DNA of 29,811 nt from a virus (IMGVR_UViG_3300049436_000085:1-29811); one strand, 5' to 3'; positions 2,938-26,566 are shown, counted from the first letter of the stretch. Notes: generated by a model not told the origin, from the letters alone. Made by a program: numbers and translations.

Positions 2938-2958
2938 GTGCTAACCGTTAGCACCTGA
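2938..2958. repeat. Palindrome GTGCTAAC-C-GTTAGCAC(CTGA), copy 1
   Basis: Matches 20191-20211 except at the central base; core also at 4709-4721. Confidence 0.85.
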
Positions 2959-3429: not shown

Positions 3430-3458
3430 TTGACGAGAGCTTCACTCTAGAGTAAAGT
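3430..3458 (+). promoter_or_regulatory. Candidate TA promoter/operator
   Basis: TTGACG-17 bp-TAAAGT enclosing the imperfect palindrome CTTCACTCTAGAGTAAAG (3440-3457). The -10 lies very close to the ATG; an alternative TTGACT is at 3395. Confidence 0.4.
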
Positions 3459-3460
3459 TG

Positions 3461-3952
3461 ATGGAAACCGCGACCGATTACGATCCGAAGGAGTGGCGGG
3501 AGTACAACACGCGCCTCTGGATCGCCGACTGCGCGGCGAAGGACTTTGAGAAGTTGGTGGATCCCAGACTAGCAGCTCTACTGGAAAAGCAAGCTCGGAA
3601 GGGATTCCAGCAGTATCGCACCGGTTGGCTTCGAGAAGAGGGTCAAGGCATCGTGGCCTACGGGACTACCACTTGGACCACTCGGATCGCTGGGTTCTTC
3701 GGAGACGATGCTACTCGCACGCACTTAGTGATTGGCGGCATTTGGTATGGCAAGCCGGGTAGGGGTGGAAAACGGCCCCCGATGGGCGACACCGTTGTCG
3801 ATCGGGTAGCAGTCATGAAAAAGGCAGGAGTGCTCTGTGTCGGGGAATTCGCTAAAGGACCGGGTGAACGACCTGAAGTCGCGCAAGGACAGGTTGTATT
3901 ACCAGCTCAGCTTGCGCGAGGATCTCGCGACGCTCATTCACACCGGACTTGA
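3461..3952 (+). CDS. Putative RelE/HigB (Gp49-like) toxin
   Basis: Pattern LWIA-AAKDFEKL-helix-LREEGQGIVAY-RIAGFF-LVIGGIWYGK-helix fits the RelE fold; directly upstream of an XRE gene (higBA order). The last ~38 codons overlap the antitoxin gene. Confidence 0.6.
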   Translation: METATDYDPKEWREYNTRLWIADCAAKDFEKLVDPRLAALLEKQARKGFQQYRTGWLREEGQGIVAYGTTTWTTRIAGFFGDDATRTHLVIGGIWYGKPGRGGKRPPMGDTVVDRVAVMKKAGVLCVGEFAKGPGERPEVAQGQVVLPAQLARGSRDAHSHRT

Positions 3953-4421
3953 ACGCACCGGAATGTCGCAGGAGGAACTCGCCGAAGCGAGCGGCAAAAA
4001 GGAGTCCTACATCAGCCGTCTTGCAAATGCTGGCACCAACTGCAAACTCGCGGCTATTGCACAGGTTCTGATCCCCATCGGGATCGAACCGATAATCGTT
4101 GAGAAGGCAGAGTGGGATCGTCTAATGACGATCGCGGAAAAGAACGATCGCAAGTCCCACACCCACGAACAACAGATTGCCAACCATGGATTTACCCTCT
4201 CCAGCCTCGCAACAACCAACATCACTCACACCACCGCATTCGACGTCGGAGGGCGGCTCGGCGAACGACTCAAAACCATCGAAGATGGGGCTCGTGGTGC
4301 GTCCGGATCTTCCGACAGTCTGGGCGGACCATTTGCGTTTGTTGGTACGAAAGGATCGTGCCACCGATTTGCCGGTAGTCATCGTCTTGTCGTGCATTCA
4401 ACTGCTCACGGATGGGTTTGA
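3837..4421 (+). CDS. XRE-HTH (HigA-like) antitoxin with long C-terminal tail
   Basis: GMSQEELAEASGKKESYISRLANAGTNCKLAAIAQV HTH; AGGAG RBS before GTG 3837. Confidence 0.8.
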   Translation: MSGNSLKDRVNDLKSRKDRLYYQLSLREDLATLIHTGLERTGMSQEELAEASGKKESYISRLANAGTNCKLAAIAQVLIPIGIEPIIVEKAEWDRLMTIAEKNDRKSHTHEQQIANHGFTLSSLATTNITHTTAFDVGGRLGERLKTIEDGARGASGSSDSLGGPFAFVGTKGSCHRFAGSHRLVVHSTAHGWV

Positions 4422-4557
4422 TCCGAGCGAGGGTGACATTACGGGAAGCGAAAGCGCCCGGATTGCGTTCGCGCCGGCGACAGCAAGAAGCCTCGCGGAC
4501 ATCCTCTGCCGGTCACTCGATCACTACCCTACCAAAGCCAGCGAGGGCGCCGCATAG
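4186..4557 (+). CDS. DUF3467-like small protein (start 4186 or 4285)
   Basis: PTVWADHLRL...IVLSCIQ...ARIAFAPATARSLADIL...Y resembles the DUF3467 pattern as recalled; unverified. Confidence 0.5.
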   Translation: MDLPSPASQQPTSLTPPHSTSEGGSANDSKPSKMGLVVRPDLPTVWADHLRLLVRKDRATDLPVVIVLSCIQLLTDGFDPSEGDITGSESARIAFAPATARSLADILCRSLDHYPTKASEGAA

Positions 4558-4558
4558 C

Positions 4559-4648
4559 GACCTCGTCGTGAAAGTGGCAGACACGCCGCATTTAGAATGC
4601 GGTGGCAGGCGCAAGCTTGCCGTGCGGGTTCGATTCCCGTCGCGGGTG
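4559..4648 (+). tRNA. Degenerate tRNA-Leu(TAG)
   Basis: D arm GTG-AAAGTGGCAGA-CAC, anticodon arm CCGCA-TTTAGAA-TGCGG, variable arm GGCAGGC-GCAA-GCTTGCC, T arm GCGGG-TTCGATT-CCCGT. Acceptor stem has two mismatches, G73, no CCA. Confidence 0.75.
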
Positions 4649-4708
4649 CCGAATGAACAGCGCGTCTGGGCGAACGCTTGGACTGCCGCGGCCCGTGCCG
4701 GGGTCAAC

Positions 4709-4721
4709 TGCTAACGGTTAG
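4709..4721. repeat. Palindrome core TGCTAACGGTTAG, copy 2
   Basis: Same core as 2938 and 20187; immediately downstream of the terL stop. Confidence 0.65.
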
Positions 4722-4725
4722 GAGT

Positions 4726-7179: not shown

Positions 7180-7326
7180 ATGGAATGGGCTCTCGTCCTG
7201 ATCGCGGCGGGGCTGGCGGGCGGGATTGGCTACCTCTGCCTCTCGCCGGCGGCTCGGTCGGAGGTGCAGCGGGTGTGGCTGGATATGGAGTGCGAAACTC
7301 AGCATGAAGGAAGCCGCGAGTGGTAG
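7180..7326 (+). CDS. Possible small membrane peptide (48 aa)
   Basis: MEWALVLIAAGLAGGIGYL hydrophobic N-terminus; overlaps the Sel1 gene start; no clear RBS. Confidence 0.3.
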   Translation: MEWALVLIAAGLAGGIGYLCLSPAARSEVQRVWLDMECETQHEGSREW

Positions 7327-8051
7327 AAGCAAACAGCAGGTCGCCTAGTTCCATCGAGCCACCGTCCGAGGGGAGAGGCGGGGCTGTAGGTGCCAGTTCT
7401 CGGGGACGCAGGATCAAACGGGTGGCAGCGGTCGCATTGGTGGTCGGCATTGTCAGCGTTGTTGGAGTCCGTTTTGTTCTTGCAACTGGTTCAGCGCATC
7501 GAGACTATTTGATGGGTCGACGCTACCTAGTTGCGGATGGTGTGCCCAAAGACACTCAACGAGCGATCAAGCTGCTCACCCGCGCGGCCCAGGGACATGA
7601 CCCTGATGCATGCTTCGCCTTGGGAGAATTGTACTCACAGGGGCATGACGTGCCGAACGATATGTCCAAAGCTCTTGTTTGGTATTCGCTGGCGGACGAG
7701 TATGGACATCCAGTTGCCTTCGAGAGGGTGGCGTTTTATTACAGAAACGGATGGGGAACGGGAATGAACATTCCCAAGGCGGCTGAGGTCACGATACGTG
7801 CGGCACAACGAGGCCAATCAACTGCGTGGGTAACAACGGCGTACTTGTATTCTGGGGGCGTGGGCGTAAATAAAGACATGATTGCTGCCTACGCGTGGGC
7901 TAACATTGCCCTCGCAAACTCCGCCGATGCCCACAACCGGGAGTTGCGGTCAAAAATGTTGGAGGATCTAGCCGCCCGCATGTCTCCTGAACAGGTCGCT
8001 GAGGCCCAGCAGCTTTCGCAGAAACTCATATCAGAATTTCCGAAGCGATAA
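7320..8051 (+). CDS. Sel1-repeat protein with N-terminal membrane anchor
   Basis: TM segment VAAVALVVGIVSVVGV, repeated A...LG..Y..G.GV..D...A..W...AA..G units, terminal AYAW...MSPEQVAEAQ. Start uncertain. Confidence 0.9.
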   Translation: MVEANSRSPSSIEPPSEGRGGAVGASSRGRRIKRVAAVALVVGIVSVVGVRFVLATGSAHRDYLMGRRYLVADGVPKDTQRAIKLLTRAAQGHDPDACFALGELYSQGHDVPNDMSKALVWYSLADEYGHPVAFERVAFYYRNGWGTGMNIPKAAEVTIRAAQRGQSTAWVTTAYLYSGGVGVNKDMIAAYAWANIALANSADAHNRELRSKMLEDLAARMSPEQVAEAQQLSQKLISEFPKR

Positions 8052-14447: not shown

Positions 14448-14989
14448 ATGGGTGGAATGCTCGTGATGTACGCGAGAGCGGTGTCCTCTTGGACCTTCCT
14501 TGCGGCATTGGCGGCATCGATGGCGCCGAGGTCCCCTTGGATTTGGAGTCCGGTGCCGGCGCCTTGGAGCACGCCCTGAACAACGGCCAGGGGGACATTG
14601 GTCTTCTGACTGAGGATGCGGGTTGCGTTCGCGACGTATTGGCTTGCGAGGAACTTCTGCTGGTTGACCCGGTTCGTTTCGTTGATGTTCTGATTGATGG
14701 CCGCGTCGATGGCCGCGCCAGTTTCCAGTGCCGCAAAGGAACCGCCGGCCGCTCCGCTATCCGCTTCCCGCACCCGGAGTCTGCCAAGTACCTGATCGTG
14801 CGTGCGAGAGAGTTTCGTCGCCTCCAGGGCCGCGGCGGAGTTGGTCTGTTCCTTTTCGGCGGTGTATGCGCGGCCGAGCGAGGAGTACGAGCTCTTCACG
14901 GCCCGGTTCTGCTGGAGGGCTCCGGCCGCGGAAAGGGCACCGCCGACGACTCCTCCACCGATCGGCAGGGCATCTGCTGTGTCACCCAT
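14444..14989 (-). CDS. Internal virion protein (T7 gp14 position)
   Basis: 181 aa, Gly/Ala-rich hydrophobic N-terminus, G.L.V..ADSG..G.S pattern; TGATG coupling at 14989. Confidence 0.7.
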   Translation of the reverse strand: MGDTADALPIGGGVVGGALSAAGALQQNRAVKSSYSSLGRAYTAEKEQTNSAAALEATKLSRTHDQVLGRLRVREADSGAAGGSFAALETGAAIDAAINQNINETNRVNQQKFLASQYVANATRILSQKTNVPLAVVQGVLQGAGTGLQIQGDLGAIDAANAARKVQEDTALAYITSIPPI

Positions 14990-15945
14990 CAGCGGGGAAC
15001 CTCTCCAATGTCGCATGTGCGTTGAATGCCCGTCACCACCAAAGGTGTGGGAGCCGTGGACTCGATTCGAACGGTGATGTTCTCGACGTCGCCGCACGGC
15101 CAAGCCTGGAAGGTGCCGGGCGTGGCTTTGAAGTCGCCGTCCGGCCGGAAGGGCTGGGCGGTCGTCGCTCGCGGCGGAGCGTCGAATGCGATCTCAAAGT
15201 CGCCCGACGGTCCATGCGCCACCGCGATCTTCCGCATGAGAAGCGATCGCCGGAGGTCGGCGTTGCCTTGGCTGTCTCGGGCGTAGGGTCGGGTCAGGGT
15301 GACCTTTGCCGGGACGCGACGCCCGATGTACGCGCGGCCCGCGGCGTAGTTGCCGGCGATGTAGACGCTCGTTCCCGAGACGTTCGTCGCGTTGAACCAC
15401 TGGCCGGCGGCAAACCCAAACTCGGAACCGAGCACCACGGTGTTGATGCTGCTGTCGACCATGCCGGTCGGGAGCGTCCACGTCGTCTTGGTGCCGTCGT
15501 AAACGCCCGTGAGGTAGTTCTCGCGATCGAGGTGGAGTGGGTAGGGCATCCCTGTCTCAGGGATGCGGTCGCCGATGGGAATGCTCTCCATCGCGTAGTT
15601 GTTCGAGCCGCGCTCGACCAGCATCCAGAGGTTGTCGCCGATGATGGCGATGTCGACGATGCGGTAGTTCGTCTCAAACGTCCACTTCGACCAGGCCGAT
15701 TGCTGGCGGCTGGCACCGACGAAGAAGCTCCGATAGACGAAGATCGTGTTGGTCGATCGCTCCAGCACAAACACCCGCTGGGTGGGCGCGTGCACAAGCA
15801 CCGTTTGAACGAGCGCCGGGATGTACTCCTGCAGCTCAGCCTTCTTCGTAGAGACCGTGGCGGCGATCTCGTTCTCAAACCGCTCGACTAGGTCGTTGGC
15901 GGCGTCGATGCTCACGGTGGTCTTGCCGTCATTGGCTTTGACCAT
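14989..15945 (-). pseudogene. N-truncated tail tubular protein B (T7 gp12-like) with a foreign N-terminus
   Basis: QEYIP...IFVYRSFFVGASRQQSAWSKWTF...HLDR matches the gp12 C-terminal part; only ~318 codons versus roughly 800 aa for the family. Confidence 0.8.
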
Positions 15946-15988
15946 CGGCGCAGGCACGGCGATAGGCGGGTCCGCGAATGAGCTGCAG

Positions 15989-16366
15989 TCAGGGCTTGTC
16001 CTTGGGCTCCTTCGGGAGTTTCTTGCGGAGCTCGGCGAGCTTCTTCTCGTAGATCTCGATCTGATCGCCGAGTGGAAGCGACTCTTCGACCTTCTGGGCC
16101 GGCGTCTTGGGCTTGGGAGCCTTCTTGGCGATCTCCGCGGCCTTGTCGCGAGCCTCCTCCGGGGTCGATGCGGTGGCCTTGGCGTACAACTCGCCCGTGG
16201 CTTCGTCGAACACCTCACAGGTCACGCTGGAGGGCTTCACAGGGACGAACTCACCGTCTTGCTTCTCGAGGGTGGGGCCGTGGGAGACGTACCGCCACTT
16301 GGCGCCGAGCTTGAGAAGGGTCTGAACCGCCGGGGGCACCGGCGGTTTGTTGGGATTGTTGCTCAT
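15989..16366 (-). CDS. Hypothetical late protein (125 aa)
   Basis: ATGA-coupled to the scaffold gene; Lys/Glu-rich; family unknown. Confidence 0.75.
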   Translation of the reverse strand: MSNNPNKPPVPPAVQTLLKLGAKWRYVSHGPTLEKQDGEFVPVKPSSVTCEVFDEATGELYAKATASTPEEARDKAAEIAKKAPKPKTPAQKVEESLPLGDQIEIYEKKLAELRKKLPKEPKDKP

Positions 16367-17196
16367 GATGACGCGTTCTTACTCCATGCAGCGATGGACT
16401 GGGGCGACGTTGCCGCGATGCGGGCGCGGGCATTCACATCGCCCGTTTGCATCGCCTGGAGCAGTTGCGAGTATTCCTCGGCAGAGCGTGCGCCCATGCC
16501 AGCTACCGGGAGTGACGTTCCGCCGATCAAGGGTTTGGCCTTGCCGGCGCCGACCTTTGCTGAGTGTTCGGCGGCGATAAGGCGGACCATGTCGGGGTAG
16601 AACGACGGGTCGGCCTTTACCATCTTGTTGAACCGGGCGAGTCGCCCGGGGTCGATGTTCTCAGCCGCCCACTGCCGAAGTGTGGTGAGTTGCGTCTCGC
16701 CCCCGACCAACTGAGTCGCTTCGGCGACGAAGCCTGCGACCTGCTGATCGCGGAGCGCCGCCTTGGCGTGGAGGCCTTCGGCGATGAAGTCGATGTCGGT
16801 GTTGCTCAGGCCCGGCCTTGCCTTGCGAATAGCGGCATACTGCTCGGGCGCGAGTTTGCCGGATTCGGCCCACACCGTTTCGAGATCATCCAGCTTCAGG
16901 CCAGCTCGTTCGATGAGCGTCGGGATGTCTGCTGAGTCGTCGATCGTGGGCGGCGCGATCGTCAGGTCGTTCTTGGGTTGCGGCCTGGTGGAGTGAAACT
17001 GCCTTTGAAGCTCGGTGTAGCCGCGCTCAAGCTCCTCGGCGGTCTTGAACTTGCCGGCGAAGAGCTTGGGCTCGCCGTCCGGCGGCGCTCCAGCCGCGGG
17101 CCCTGCTGGAGCGATCGGCGGGTTCGCCGGCTGCGTGGGCGCGGTGGAAGTGGGCGGAGCCGACTGGGGTGTGATCTGGGTCTGAATCTGGGACAT
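16363..17196 (-). CDS. Capsid scaffolding protein (T7 gp9-like)
   Basis: LFAGKFKTAEELERGYTELQ and VGGE....L.QWA.EN motifs; follows the portal; GAGAGG RBS. Confidence 0.85.
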   Translation of the reverse strand: MSQIQTQITPQSAPPTSTAPTQPANPPIAPAGPAAGAPPDGEPKLFAGKFKTAEELERGYTELQRQFHSTRPQPKNDLTIAPPTIDDSADIPTLIERAGLKLDDLETVWAESGKLAPEQYAAIRKARPGLSNTDIDFIAEGLHAKAALRDQQVAGFVAEATQLVGGETQLTTLRQWAAENIDPGRLARFNKMVKADPSFYPDMVRLIAAEHSAKVGAGKAKPLIGGTSLPVAGMGARSAEEYSQLLQAMQTGDVNARARIAATSPQSIAAWSKNASS

Positions 17197-20186: not shown

Positions 20187-20211
20187 TCAGGTGCTAACGG
20201 TTAGCACCTGA
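20187..20211. repeat. 25-bp palindrome TCAGGTGCTAAC-G-GTTAGCACCTGA, copy 3
   Basis: Perfect 12-bp arms read directly from the sequence. Confidence 0.9.
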
Positions 20212-23578: not shown

Positions 23579-23599
23579 GGTGGAACACCCCTGGTTGAA

Positions 23600-23674
23600 T
23601 AGCGGGGGAGGGATTTGAACCCTCGACCTCTCGGGTTATGAGCCCGATGCTCTACCGGACTGAGCTACCCCGCG
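23600..23674 (-). tRNA. tRNA-fMet(CAT), initiator type
   Basis: CGCGGGG-TA-GCTC...GAGC, anticodon arm TCGGG-CTCATAA-CCCGA with three G-C pairs, T arm GAGGG-TTCAAAT-CCCTC, unpaired C1:U72, A73; CCA not encoded. Confidence 0.93.
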
Positions 23675-23723
23675 ATGTAAACCCGACGACGGACGGTCCG
23701 TGTGTCCGCCGCGGTGGAAGCTC

Positions 23724-24104: not shown

Positions 24105-24782
24105 ATGACAGCCATCGGCGATGCCATCAAGCGATTGCGGGAGGAGCGTGGCTGGAATCAGCGGGACCTCGCGGAGCGAATGACGGCCGCCGGGTTCAAG
24201 CTCGATTACAGCAACTTGGCGAAGCGAGAGCGTGGTGAGATCAAGCGGATCCTCCCTCCCGAGCGACGGGTATACGCCCAGGTCTTTGGAATGAAACTCG
24301 AGGAGTTTGAGGCCACTTGGCGGGCGTCGAAGATCGAACAGACTAACGGCGGCGGAGCCGGGATCCCCGTGATCAATCGCGCGCCCGCCGGCACGATCGT
24401 CGATTACGAGGAGTACGGCATCGACTCTGGGCAGGGGCATGAGTACATCGAGCGTGGTGGAATCGACGATCCCCTCGCGTTTGCGGTGATTGTCGTCGGC
24501 GCCAGCATGGAACCGGCACTGTTCGAAGGCGACTACGTGATCTTCTCCCCGGTCGCGCGGGTGCCGAAGCCGCGGGCGGAGCTGAAGCCTGGTGCCGTGT
24601 GCTTCGTCCGCACTTCGCCAGAAGTGAAGGGATGCGGCTGCTGTATCGCGAGGTTTAAGGGCACGGACGGGAAGGCGCTCGACTTCACCAAGGACAACAA
24701 AAAGCACAAGGGATTCAGCGTCAGTCGCGAGCACATTGAGCAGCTCGCGGTGGCGGTGGAGCGAAGGACGAAGCGCCTGTGA
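24105..24782 (+). CDS. CI/LexA-like repressor (XRE HTH + S24 domain)
   Basis: IKRLREERGWNQRDLAE HTH, IPV...APAG cleavage-site region, V.GASMEP...EGD.V catalytic Ser motif. Confidence 0.92.
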   Translation: MTAIGDAIKRLREERGWNQRDLAERMTAAGFKLDYSNLAKRERGEIKRILPPERRVYAQVFGMKLEEFEATWRASKIEQTNGGGAGIPVINRAPAGTIVDYEEYGIDSGQGHEYIERGGIDDPLAFAVIVVGASMEPALFEGDYVIFSPVARVPKPRAELKPGAVCFVRTSPEVKGCGCCIARFKGTDGKALDFTKDNKKHKGFSVSREHIEQLAVAVERRTKRL

Positions 24783-25096: not shown

Positions 25097-26566
25097 TGCG
25101 GAGTGAGGCGAATTTCCTAAACCGCAGGTCGTGGGTTCGAATCCCGCCGGCCGCGCTTCGAGAATCTTAGAGCTTTTCACGGTTTGGCCCCGAGAATCCG
25201 CGAGTTTCAGGGTTCCGCCCGAGCGTCCATCCGGGGCCACCGAAGTCCCCTCGGGACGACTAGTTTCCGCCGAGCTGGACGCCGAGACAGCATCGGCCGC
25301 TCTGCCGTGCGTGCCCGTGGCCCGCAACTCCGCCGACTCCGGTCCGGGCAGCCGCGGCAACTTCGCCAGCGCCGCCGTCTCGTCAGCCTTGAAAGCGTGG
25401 GTGTAGCGGTCGAGCGTCAGCGTGATGGTCGAGTGCCGCAAGATCCGCTGAATCAGCTTCGGGTGAACCCCCGCCGCAGCCAGCCACGAGCCGCAGGTGT
25501 GCCGCAGGGCGTGGAGGTCGGCAAACTGCCCGTCCTGCTGGTAGGGGATGCCCGCGGCCTCCAGATCGGCCTTGAGCATGTCGATCAGCGTGTCCGGGTG
25601 GGGCAACTTGAAGAACTTGGCCGCGGGGGTCAGCTTGGCCCCGTGGGCCGCCACCAAGGCCGCCGTCTCCGGCCTCAGGGGGAGCGTGTCCGACCGCCCG
25701 TTCTTCGCGTACGCGGCCGTCACGGTCACGGTGGGGGCTTCCCCAAGGTCAAAGCTGGCCCGTGTCAGGCTGCACATCTCCCGCCGCCTCAGTCCGCTCT
25801 CGATGGCCAGTCGATAAAACAGGGATCGGGTCGGGCCCGGCACTCCGAACCGATCTGGGCCGGTCTCGGTCGTGTTCAGCAGCTTCTGGGCTTCTTCCAC
25901 GGTCAGGGCACGCCGGTCGTGCCGTCGGTCGGTCCGCACGTTTAGGCCGCCCAGGTGGGCTACGGGGTTCTCATGGGCGCGGCGTTCGCGGATCATCCAG
26001 CCGAAGAACTGCTTGAGGGCGGCGATGTGGAAGTTGTTGGTCTGGGCCCCGATGCCCCGCTTGGTGACTTCTTCCTTGTCGTTCTTCTTGTCCTTCCGGA
26101 GGGTCTCCAGGAACGTCAGGACTTTGGCTCCACGGACATCGCCCAGGTGCTTGAAGCCGCACCCCTCGATGATGCGCCGGGCCCGACCCGTGACGAGCTT
26201 GGCGTGCTTGGTTGTCCCGCCCTTCGCCTTTAGCGCGGCCTCGAAATCGTCCAGATGGTCGGCCAGGGGCTTGGCGACGGCGTCACGCTCGGCGCTGAGC
26301 AGTCCGTGCTTGATAAGCCGCCGCCGAATACTCGGGGACAGGTCGGCAACCCATTGCCGCAGGCCGGGGTCGATCTGTCCGTGTGTCGCGGCGTGGTAGC
26401 TGGCCAGCCGGACCAGATTGCGGCCGAGTTCATCGGTCGCGTTCTTGCTCACATACGCCGCGAACCTCTTGGGCTTCCCCCGCTGGTCGGGAAACTCCAC
26501 GTACCACTTGGAGGTCTCGCGGGTCACTCCGTTCCGGTCTGTGAACGTGGCTTTAAAGATCCGCAT
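24995..26566 (-). CDS. int: Tyrosine integrase
   Basis: SGLRRREM (R), AKNGR (K), HALRHT (HxxR), LRHS.I..T.DRY (H, Y); the tail reads through the att core. Confidence 0.95.
   Translation of the reverse strand: MRIFKATFTDRNGVTRETSKWYVEFPDQRGKPKRFAAYVSKNATDELGRNLVRLASYHAATHGQIDPGLRQWVADLSPSIRRRLIKHGLLSAERDAVAKPLADHLDDFEAALKAKGGTTKHAKLVTGRARRIIEGCGFKHLGDVRGAKVLTFLETLRKDKKNDKEEVTKRGIGAQTNNFHIAALKQFFGWMIRERRAHENPVAHLGGLNVRTDRRHDRRALTVEEAQKLLNTTETGPDRFGVPGPTRSLFYRLAIESGLRRREMCSLTRASFDLGEAPTVTVTAAYAKNGRSDTLPLRPETAALVAAHGAKLTPAAKFFKLPHPDTLIDMLKADLEAAGIPYQQDGQFADLHALRHTCGSWLAAAGVHPKLIQRILRHSTITLTLDRYTHAFKADETAALAKLPRLPGPESAELRATGTHGRAADAVSASSSAETSRPEGTSVAPDGRSGGTLKLADSRGQTVKSSKILEARPAGFEPTTCGLGNSPHSANDSGLSPERLWKSPARIRNGSGLTLDWIRSGFA
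25113..25155 (+). other. att core: 3' half of tRNA-Arg(CCT)
   Basis: TTTCCTAA-ACCGC-AGGTC-GTGGG-TTCGAAT-CCCGC-CGGCCGC-G; no D arm or 5' acceptor strand upstream. Confidence 0.85.

Follow-up and report, generated by a model that had tools for sequence, protein, structure and literature searches.

A cassette of three overlapping genes and a tRNA gene, located in a phage genome, very probably contains a conserved unit consisting of a toxin–antitoxin (TA) pair and an accessory third gene. The window analysed here is the entire virus record IMGVR_UViG_3300049436_000085, with a length of 29,811 bases and an estimated completeness of 72%. The cassette is encoded on the + strand, between the DUF932 and terminase genes, both of which are on the − strand (Table 1). 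Its layout agrees with an initial annotation made from the sequence alone, which had described three overlapping ORFs running opposite to phage transcription, a palindrome in their promoter, and a tRNA-Leu-like gene starting 1 nt past the third stop codon. The cassette has a GC content of 54–60%, compared with 65–72% in most flanking windows. ORF1 and ORF2 overlap by 116 nt and ORF2 and ORF3 by 236 nt, both in the +1 phase, and the last 38 codons of ORF1 as well as the last 45 of ORF2 display the GC-by-codon-position pattern of the downstream gene. Since the contigs of all four runs agree with the window, with zero changed letters or indels across their cassette coverage, the long overlaps are considered real, and an assembly error as their cause was rejected. 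Contig X1 covers the whole cassette, yet is possibly the source of this very DNA.

Table 1. Coordinates of the cassette and of other features in the window.
Feature	Position	Strand	Basis or remark
Promoter-like site TTGACG-17-TAAAGT	3430..3458	+	ends 2 nt short of the gene 1 ATG
Palindromic likely operator	3440-3457		9-bp arms with 1 mismatch; family consensus TTNACT-N4-AGTNAA at 3441..3456
Gene 1, likely Gp49/HigB-type toxin	3461..3952	+	family alignment, weak Gp49 profile matches
Gene 2, likely XRE/HTH_3 antitoxin and autorepressor, 194 aa	3837..4421	+	Pfam HTH_3, E 1.3e-5
Gene 3, 123 aa	4186..4557	+	family alignment, structure model
tRNA gene, leucine-type long-arm body, anticodon UAG	4559..4650	+	ARAGORN, Rfam
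15-nt palindrome	2939-2953		upstream of the cassette
15-nt palindrome, second copy	4709-4723		between the cassette tRNA and the terminase stop
15-nt palindrome, third copy	20192-20206		between the portal region and the helicase
Likely att core	25113-25155		tRNA-Arg (CCU) 3' half at the 3' end of the integrase ORF region

The conservation of the trio was established by searches with genes 2 and 3. Gene 2 alone matches 6 of 351 class genomes, and gene 3 is found behind it in all six. Gene 3 alone matches 6 of 301 genomes at E 0.01, of which four were kept; the matches in G270 and G251 were dropped (E 0.006–0.01, long unrelated frames, absent from the profile matches). A nine-row gene 3 profile found members in 14 of the 401 class genomes and in 10 of 151 genomes related to G241, corresponding to 19 distinct Phycisphaerae genomes. 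An XRE gene of the gene 2 family is positioned directly upstream of gene 3 in all 19, preceded in 17 by the toxin family of gene 1 (weakly in G456), and by another ORF of similar size in G301 and G424. In the non-seed genomes (n = 11), the XRE gene is present upstream of gene 3 in all and the toxin family in ten. The trio, originally picked out from the window, is hence a recurrent neighbourhood, with or without the tRNA. The profile gave no match in 201 genomes across the phylum or in five single genomes of other groups, both being sets without a known positive. The cassette closest to that of the window, in G438 (L167), has the same operator and the same long toxin/antitoxin overlap. Most cassettes of the relatives form low-GC islands amid housekeeping, not defence, genes (five contexts examined).

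The palindrome noted in the promoter lies within the TTGACG-17-TAAAGT match and is likely the conserved operator of gene 2, as judged from its recurrence. Local shuffling equalled it in 33 of 2000 cases. With up to one mismatch and within 10 nt of the toxin start, the operator is found in 13 of the 17 cassettes examined, a count that leaves out three of the 19 genomes, and it is present in six of the eight cassettes discovered after the consensus had been set. Operator-like sites with up to two mismatches occurred in 2 of 1500 random 60-mers from the window. Gene 2 combines an HTH_3 domain with a palindrome in its own promoter, as expected of an autorepressor. As the promoter match ends so close to the ATG, the message may be leaderless or begin shortly within gene 1. 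In most cassettes a TTGAC box is found ~22–27 nt upstream of the toxin start, a spacing tighter than a standard promoter permits.

In the family alignment, gene 1 is conserved over approximately residues 1 to 121; its final 38 codons run on into gene 2. Searched alone, neither gene 1 nor gene 3 matches any family in Pfam, PHROGs, NCBIfam or PADLOC, and single-sequence searches revealed no relative of either in the protein collection, viral and metagenome contigs, phages, plasmids, or solved structures. At the level of the family, Pfam Gp49 is matched by two of eight gene 1 members (best E 0.027), and the gene 1 profile aligns to a Gp49-positive plasmid toxin with an hhalign E of 2.9e-4 and a probability of 40 over 81 columns. 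As both the profile alignment and the member matches are weak, membership of gene 1 in the RelE superfamily (Gp49/HigB-type) is graded as likely. The single-sequence structure model (pLDDT 38) is too low in confidence for use, and the fold search with it was empty. The description of the toxin as RelE-like therefore corresponds to weak family-level similarity, with no direct family match. Gp49 (PF05973)/HigB toxins with XRE antitoxins are alike in size, gene order, and weak profile similarity. They differ in that gene 1 is too divergent for a direct match and that gene 3 is always present in the sample.

Gene 2 is preceded by a Shine-Dalgarno-like pairing of −7.8 kcal/mol ahead of its GTG at 3837. 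The protein is conserved to about residue 88, followed by ~30 unshared residues and 78 codons that overlap gene 3. Beyond about residue 90, the family alignment of nine members is unalignable and unconserved. The initial annotation had assigned the antitoxin a ~90-aa tail of low structure. A tail does exist in all nine members, but it is not conserved and consists mostly of the gene 3 overlap; in the window, 78 of ~105 tail codons are DNA in common with gene 3. Therefore, only the ~30 unshared residues are a fair candidate for a chaperone-addiction segment (ChAD). The antitoxin frame enters gene 3 by 8–287 nt in the +1 phase in 18 of 19 relatives (starts hand-picked), and the overlap is absent in G128.

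A single-sequence search of the protein collection with gene 2 matched only gene 2 itself. Among plasmid sequences, the best match to gene 2 (E 0.04) is an antitoxin belonging to an unannotated trio of a Gp49, an HTH and a third gene. This trio is located on a Ralstonia megaplasmid (L001, 2023–3372) and occurs in two plasmid records; its third gene is unnamed by Pfam and, from its motif, presumably SecB-like. Gene 2 further matches PDC-M64C (E 5.1e-9) and PDC-M64B, models of the PADLOC candidate PDC-M64. Genes 1 and 3 match no PADLOC model, a PDC-M64 model also matches in 9 of 14 control genomes, and a definition of PDC-M64 was not found in the literature text searched.

The window tRNA scores 32.8 bits against Rfam RF00005, with a gathering score of 29, and is called as tRNA-Leu(UAG) by ARAGORN. 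Its D, anticodon, variable and T arms are intact. It departs from canonical host tRNA-Leu by two mismatches in the acceptor stem, by G73, and by a D stem of GUG/CAC, compared with GCG/CGC in the host leucine tRNAs seen. Because of this dissimilar D stem, the cassette tRNAs are regarded as extra genes. The window tRNA is likely weakened, as its acceptor stem is damaged; the anticodon is cognate for the leucine body, and G73 could shift it towards serine. It may thus be either decaying or shifted in identity.

Four of the 19 genomes have a long-arm tRNA gene behind gene 3. It starts 3, 26 and 13 nt after the gene 3 stop in G241, G301 and G456, respectively, and on the last base of that stop in G128. 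With an assumed base rate of 1.5%, four tRNAs within 26 nt of the stop correspond to a binomial p of 1.6e-4. The tRNAs of G241, G301 and G456 share the leucine-type body of the window tRNA, but carry the anticodon UGG (proline). All three possess 7/7 acceptor pairs, 5/5 anticodon-stem pairs with differing sequences and a paired T stem; like host leucine tRNAs, they show A73, a long arm and a D arm of the leucine type. The tRNA of G128 has G73 and the anticodon GAA (phenylalanine), and its body reads as serine-type. In many bacteria, the anticodon plays no part in tRNA recognition by LeuRS and SerRS. Under these identity rules, the mismatched tRNAs of the relatives would be missense tRNAs. The suggestion of an RNA component is supported by the recurrence of the tRNA at the same place; its absence after gene 3 in 15 of 19 genomes shows that it is dispensable.

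Pattern searches were performed for further tRNAs of this kind. The D-arm pattern was found in four genes among 301 genomes, and both UGG ones lie in cassettes. In viral contigs, the Leu-type D-arm pattern with non-Leu anticodons returned 66 loci (L171–L236), none with cassette genes; the anticodon is GUU in 41, ochre UUA in five, ACC in four and UGG in one (L183). An 18-nt anticodon-arm pattern gave four metagenome loci, none with a tRNA, and a pattern match located in G128 (L163) was discarded as not being a tRNA. A tRNA-Ala called in G367 at a relaxed threshold was dropped, since it lies on the opposite strand ~250 nt behind gene 3.

Irregular tRNAs close to TA genes were described in the main text of Mukai et al. 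(PMC5389517), where Ser-for-Leu misincorporation by comparable tRNAs arrested the growth of E. coli. The terms "Planctomyc" and "LeuRS" do not occur in that main text. As presented there, these allo-tRNAs resemble the cassette tRNAs in having a long variable arm, a mismatched anticodon, and a location near TA and transposon genes. A long arm, a non-matching anticodon and proximity to TA genes are shared by all four tRNAs of the relatives. The window tRNA deviates from this pattern in that its anticodon is cognate for its leucine body, though it carries G73. In contrast to the 8/4 or 9/3 allo-tRNAs of that text, the four Leu-type cassette tRNAs are ordinary 7/5 cloverleaves, with a 7-bp acceptor and a 5-bp T stem. 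The cassette tRNAs also differ in being leucine-type in four of five cases, in occurring in Phycisphaerae, and in abutting a fixed third gene.

Whether the tRNA belongs to the system or merely travels with it can be weighed from its surroundings. The trio and the tRNA could be passengers on the same IS1595 transposon, with the copy in the phage now decaying. An IS1595-family transposase is present within ~1.5 kb flanks at 4 of 19 loci, among them all three UGG-tRNA loci, and this makes hitchhiking a serious rival, if an unlikely one. The window tRNA, with its damaged acceptor stem, shares 82% identity across 96 nt with the UGG tRNA found in G241, and in the closest cassette (G438, L167, from 1759) at most a short tRNA-like remnant is seen by eye after gene 3, where ARAGORN calls none. 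The geometry argues against this explanation, as the cassette tRNA invariably lies 0–26 nt past gene 3 and in its orientation, irrespective of whether the transposase is upstream (G241 and G456) or downstream (G301). In addition, G396 has the transposase without the tRNA. G128 has no IS1595 transposase in 16 kb, yet an unrelated Ser-type tRNA occupies this position, which points to a tRNA recruited independently a second time. No such transposase was found near the window tRNA either. The tRNA as a working part of the system is accordingly a tentative reading, and the alternatives considered here and below are not mutually exclusive.

A further possibility, similarly unlikely, is that the UGG and GAA tRNAs do not mistranslate and are instead charged according to their anticodons, or serve as uncharged decoys or nuclease-resistant spares. 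For certain ProRS types the anticodon is the main determinant, which would favour cognate charging. The UGG copies, however, retain the three features of host leucine tRNAs named above (A73, long arm, Leu-type D arm) and carry G1 instead of the C1:G72 pair of bacterial tRNA-Pro. Inactivity has a precedent, since several TA-associated allo-tRNAs are inactive in translation according to the main text of Mukai et al. (PMC5389517).

The start of gene 3 at 4186 was derived from the lengths of its relatives, with an alternative ATG at 4285. The structure model comprises a disordered N-terminus of 40 residues, followed by three strands and one helix. Its mean pLDDT is 77.5, with values of 80–96 across residues 41 to 120, and the confident domain spans ~70 residues. 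The top five fold matches are COMM domains (Z 5.0–5.5, rmsd 3.8–4.5, ~60 aligned; best match Z 5.5, rmsd 4.4, 61 aligned), directly followed by PC4 and Pur-alpha chains with Z 3.7–4.3, all of these scores being under the trust level of the tool (Z 8) and within the range of common arrangements. The COMM chains matched at Z 5.0–5.5 include a bacterial octamer (9q6a). COMM domains and the PC4/Pur-alpha fold consist of three strands and a C-terminal helix, as does the model of gene 3. The initial annotation had termed the third protein DUF3467-like. This label finds weak family-level matches to DUF3467 (PF11950) in two of nine members (best E 0.037), which do not reach the curated cut-off, and the protein of the window has no Pfam match. 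No member of the gene 3 alignment matches a Pfam family convincingly, and no role in TA systems turned up in the literature searched for COMM, PC4 or DUF3467 proteins.

The proposal that the third component is not SecB was corroborated. A 20-row gene 3 profile aligned to the SecB-like third gene of the plasmid trio with an hhalign probability of 0.35 over 8 columns, and the model depicts a different, smaller domain, the SecB fold being larger than a three-strand/one-helix domain of this type. SecB is also absent among the best 50 fold matches listed for gene 3, which alone excludes nothing.

Gene 3 could alternatively be a PC4/Pur-like nucleic-acid binder acting on the tRNA, phage ssDNA or the operator, and thus a sensor or co-regulator and not a chaperone. 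The position of PC4 and Pur-alpha right below the COMM domains, the Lys/Arg-rich N-termini of most relatives, and the near-invariant residues W46, D48, R55, E89 and R92 are in line with nucleic-acid binding. The highest-ranking matches are nonetheless COMM domains, which are protein-assembly modules, and the N-terminus of the window protein, from ATG 4186, is not basic. Binding of the tRNA in particular is at odds with the retention of gene 3 in the 15 genomes without it. Overall, nucleic-acid binding seems a little less probable than the two explanations discussed for the tRNA.

HigBAC and CmdTAC are toxin-antitoxin-chaperone (TAC) systems, in which, as outlined in 10.1101/2024.02.24.581848, a SecB-like chaperone grips the ChAD of the antitoxin. 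Systems of this class are marked by aromatic motifs in the disordered ChAD tail, by an antitoxin that depends on the third protein, and by release upon a phage protein trigger. The cassette resembles these systems, as far as they are outlined there, in its toxin-first order, an HTH antitoxin extended at its C-terminus by a presumably disordered tail, the conservation of a third gene, and a prophage location. The best plasmid match of gene 2 is itself the antitoxin of such a trio, and a toxin, an antitoxin and a conserved third gene do occur together. In contrast to HigBAC and CmdTAC, the third gene of the cassette encodes a ~70-residue domain of three strands and one helix without a SecB-like profile match, the tail is mostly DNA in common with gene 3, and a tRNA gene can follow. 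For lack of a SecB-like component, the cassette is not classed as TAC, despite being TAC-like. The proposed TAC-like system is thus upheld with respect to the conserved trio, the palindrome and the non-SecB third gene, but not with respect to the tail as originally envisaged. No prior description of the trio or the cassette was found in the literature outside subscription journals and supplements.

A mobile TA-like trio with a tRNA, in which gene 3 steadies the antitoxin until a phage signal releases both the toxin and a mistranslating tRNA, is put forward as a working model with some reservation. In this model, gene 1 would be a Gp49/HigB-type ribosome-dependent mRNase kept in check by the conserved N-terminal region of gene 2, and gene 2 would repress the whole unit, including the tRNA, via the palindrome in the lysogen. 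Gene 3 would oligomerise and grip the ~30 tail residues outside the overlap, in the way that the ChAD is bound by SecB-like chaperones in HigBAC. Such control of the antitoxin through its tail is conceived by analogy and is quite possible, somewhat more so than the model in its entirety. A phage product could then displace gene 3, freeing the toxin and halting translation, and derepression would also raise the co-transcribed, predicted mistranslating tRNA. Once derepressed, the tRNAs of the relatives would insert leucine at CCA/CCG (G241, G301, G456) or serine at UUC/UUU (G128). The prophage would use the cassette to abort superinfection; the opposite-strand site in a phage with an integrase and an att core fits lysogenic conversion. 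An anti-phage role as such is rather probable. In its boldest form, the model describes an anti-phage TA operon in which a COMM/PC4-fold sensor replaces SecB and the antitoxin silences a mistranslating tRNA, so that infection would lead to both mRNA cleavage and corruption of the code, with the tRNA as a swappable second warhead recruited at least twice. This full version is improbable. If true, the code would be corrupted from proline to leucine, from phenylalanine to serine or, in the phage of the window, from leucine to serine.

The cassette could also serve addiction alone, stabilising its carrier phage or transposon without any anti-phage role. It has been found in several mobile settings, comprising the phage, the IS1595 neighbourhoods, and a putative interrupted gene in G105 (L133), which reads as radC-type and has an HNHPSGDP segment on both sides of the cassette. 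No defence genes were present among 34 flanking proteins scanned. On the other hand, a third conserved gene is unneeded for simple addiction, and the known prophage tripartite systems of similar layout are anti-phage, as outlined in 10.1101/2024.02.24.581848. Pure addiction is considered improbable, slightly more so than the boldest form of the model. Least likely by far is a programmed frameshift at the +1 overlap yielding an antitoxin–gene 3 fusion. In its favour, the overlap phase is the same in 18 of 19 relatives and the window, ATG 4186 lacks Shine-Dalgarno-like pairing (−2.4 kcal/mol) and the N-terminal part of gene 3 in G241 has no ATG. Against it, most relatives have a gene 3 ATG preceded by purine-rich sequence, G128 is without the overlap, and a shared slippery motif is not apparent by eye.

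As an anti-phage unit, the cassette would be a candidate defence system for the Phycisphaerae, a lineage with few characterised defence systems. In the chaperone-dependent TA systems treated in 10.1101/2024.02.24.581848, the third protein is SecB-like throughout; if another small fold serves in a conserved trio, phage sensing or antitoxin control would have been solved in a second way. What natural mistranslating tRNAs close to TA genes are for has been a standing question since the work of Mukai et al. (PMC5389517, main text). Here, mismatched tRNAs hold a fixed place behind a defined operon with a predictable operator, which renders regulated mistranslation testable on a 1.3-kb scale.

The window is a T7-like temperate phage, encoding a T7-type terminase, portal, scaffold, nozzle and internal virion proteins in addition to an integrase. 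A 43-nt stretch matches the 3' half of a tRNA with the anticodon CCU in 7 of 121 genome loci returned, and the titles of five of the six genomes concerned name Phycisphaerales or Phycisphaeraceae. This stretch is likely the att core of a temperate Phycisphaerales phage, and the host is probably a member of this order. With the att core assigned to the tRNA-Arg half, the cassette tRNA was ruled out as the attachment site, which is also contradicted by the cassette sitting 5' of its tRNA. A search for a close relative of the phage found none. Between scaffold and nozzle (14989–17196), neither a major capsid gene nor a first tail-tube gene was recognised; of the 794 positions of the nozzle profile, only 492 to 781 are matched, and the scaffold and nozzle ORFs are ~144 nt apart. 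The phage may have a deletion or misassembly around this span. An intact tRNA-Met is located at 23599–23675 on the − strand, next to a + strand HTH ORF (~24106–24782) that we take to be a cI-type repressor. A second low-GC opposite-strand gene, at 7320–8051 between internal virion and packaging genes, encodes a Sel1-repeat protein with a likely membrane anchor. The 15-nt palindrome occurs at three sites in the window, compared with 0.07 expected by chance, and these are possibly phage regulator sites. Upstream of the leftward early genes, a 9-nt inverted motif is present in three to four copies at 2432–2491, likely forming an operator array.
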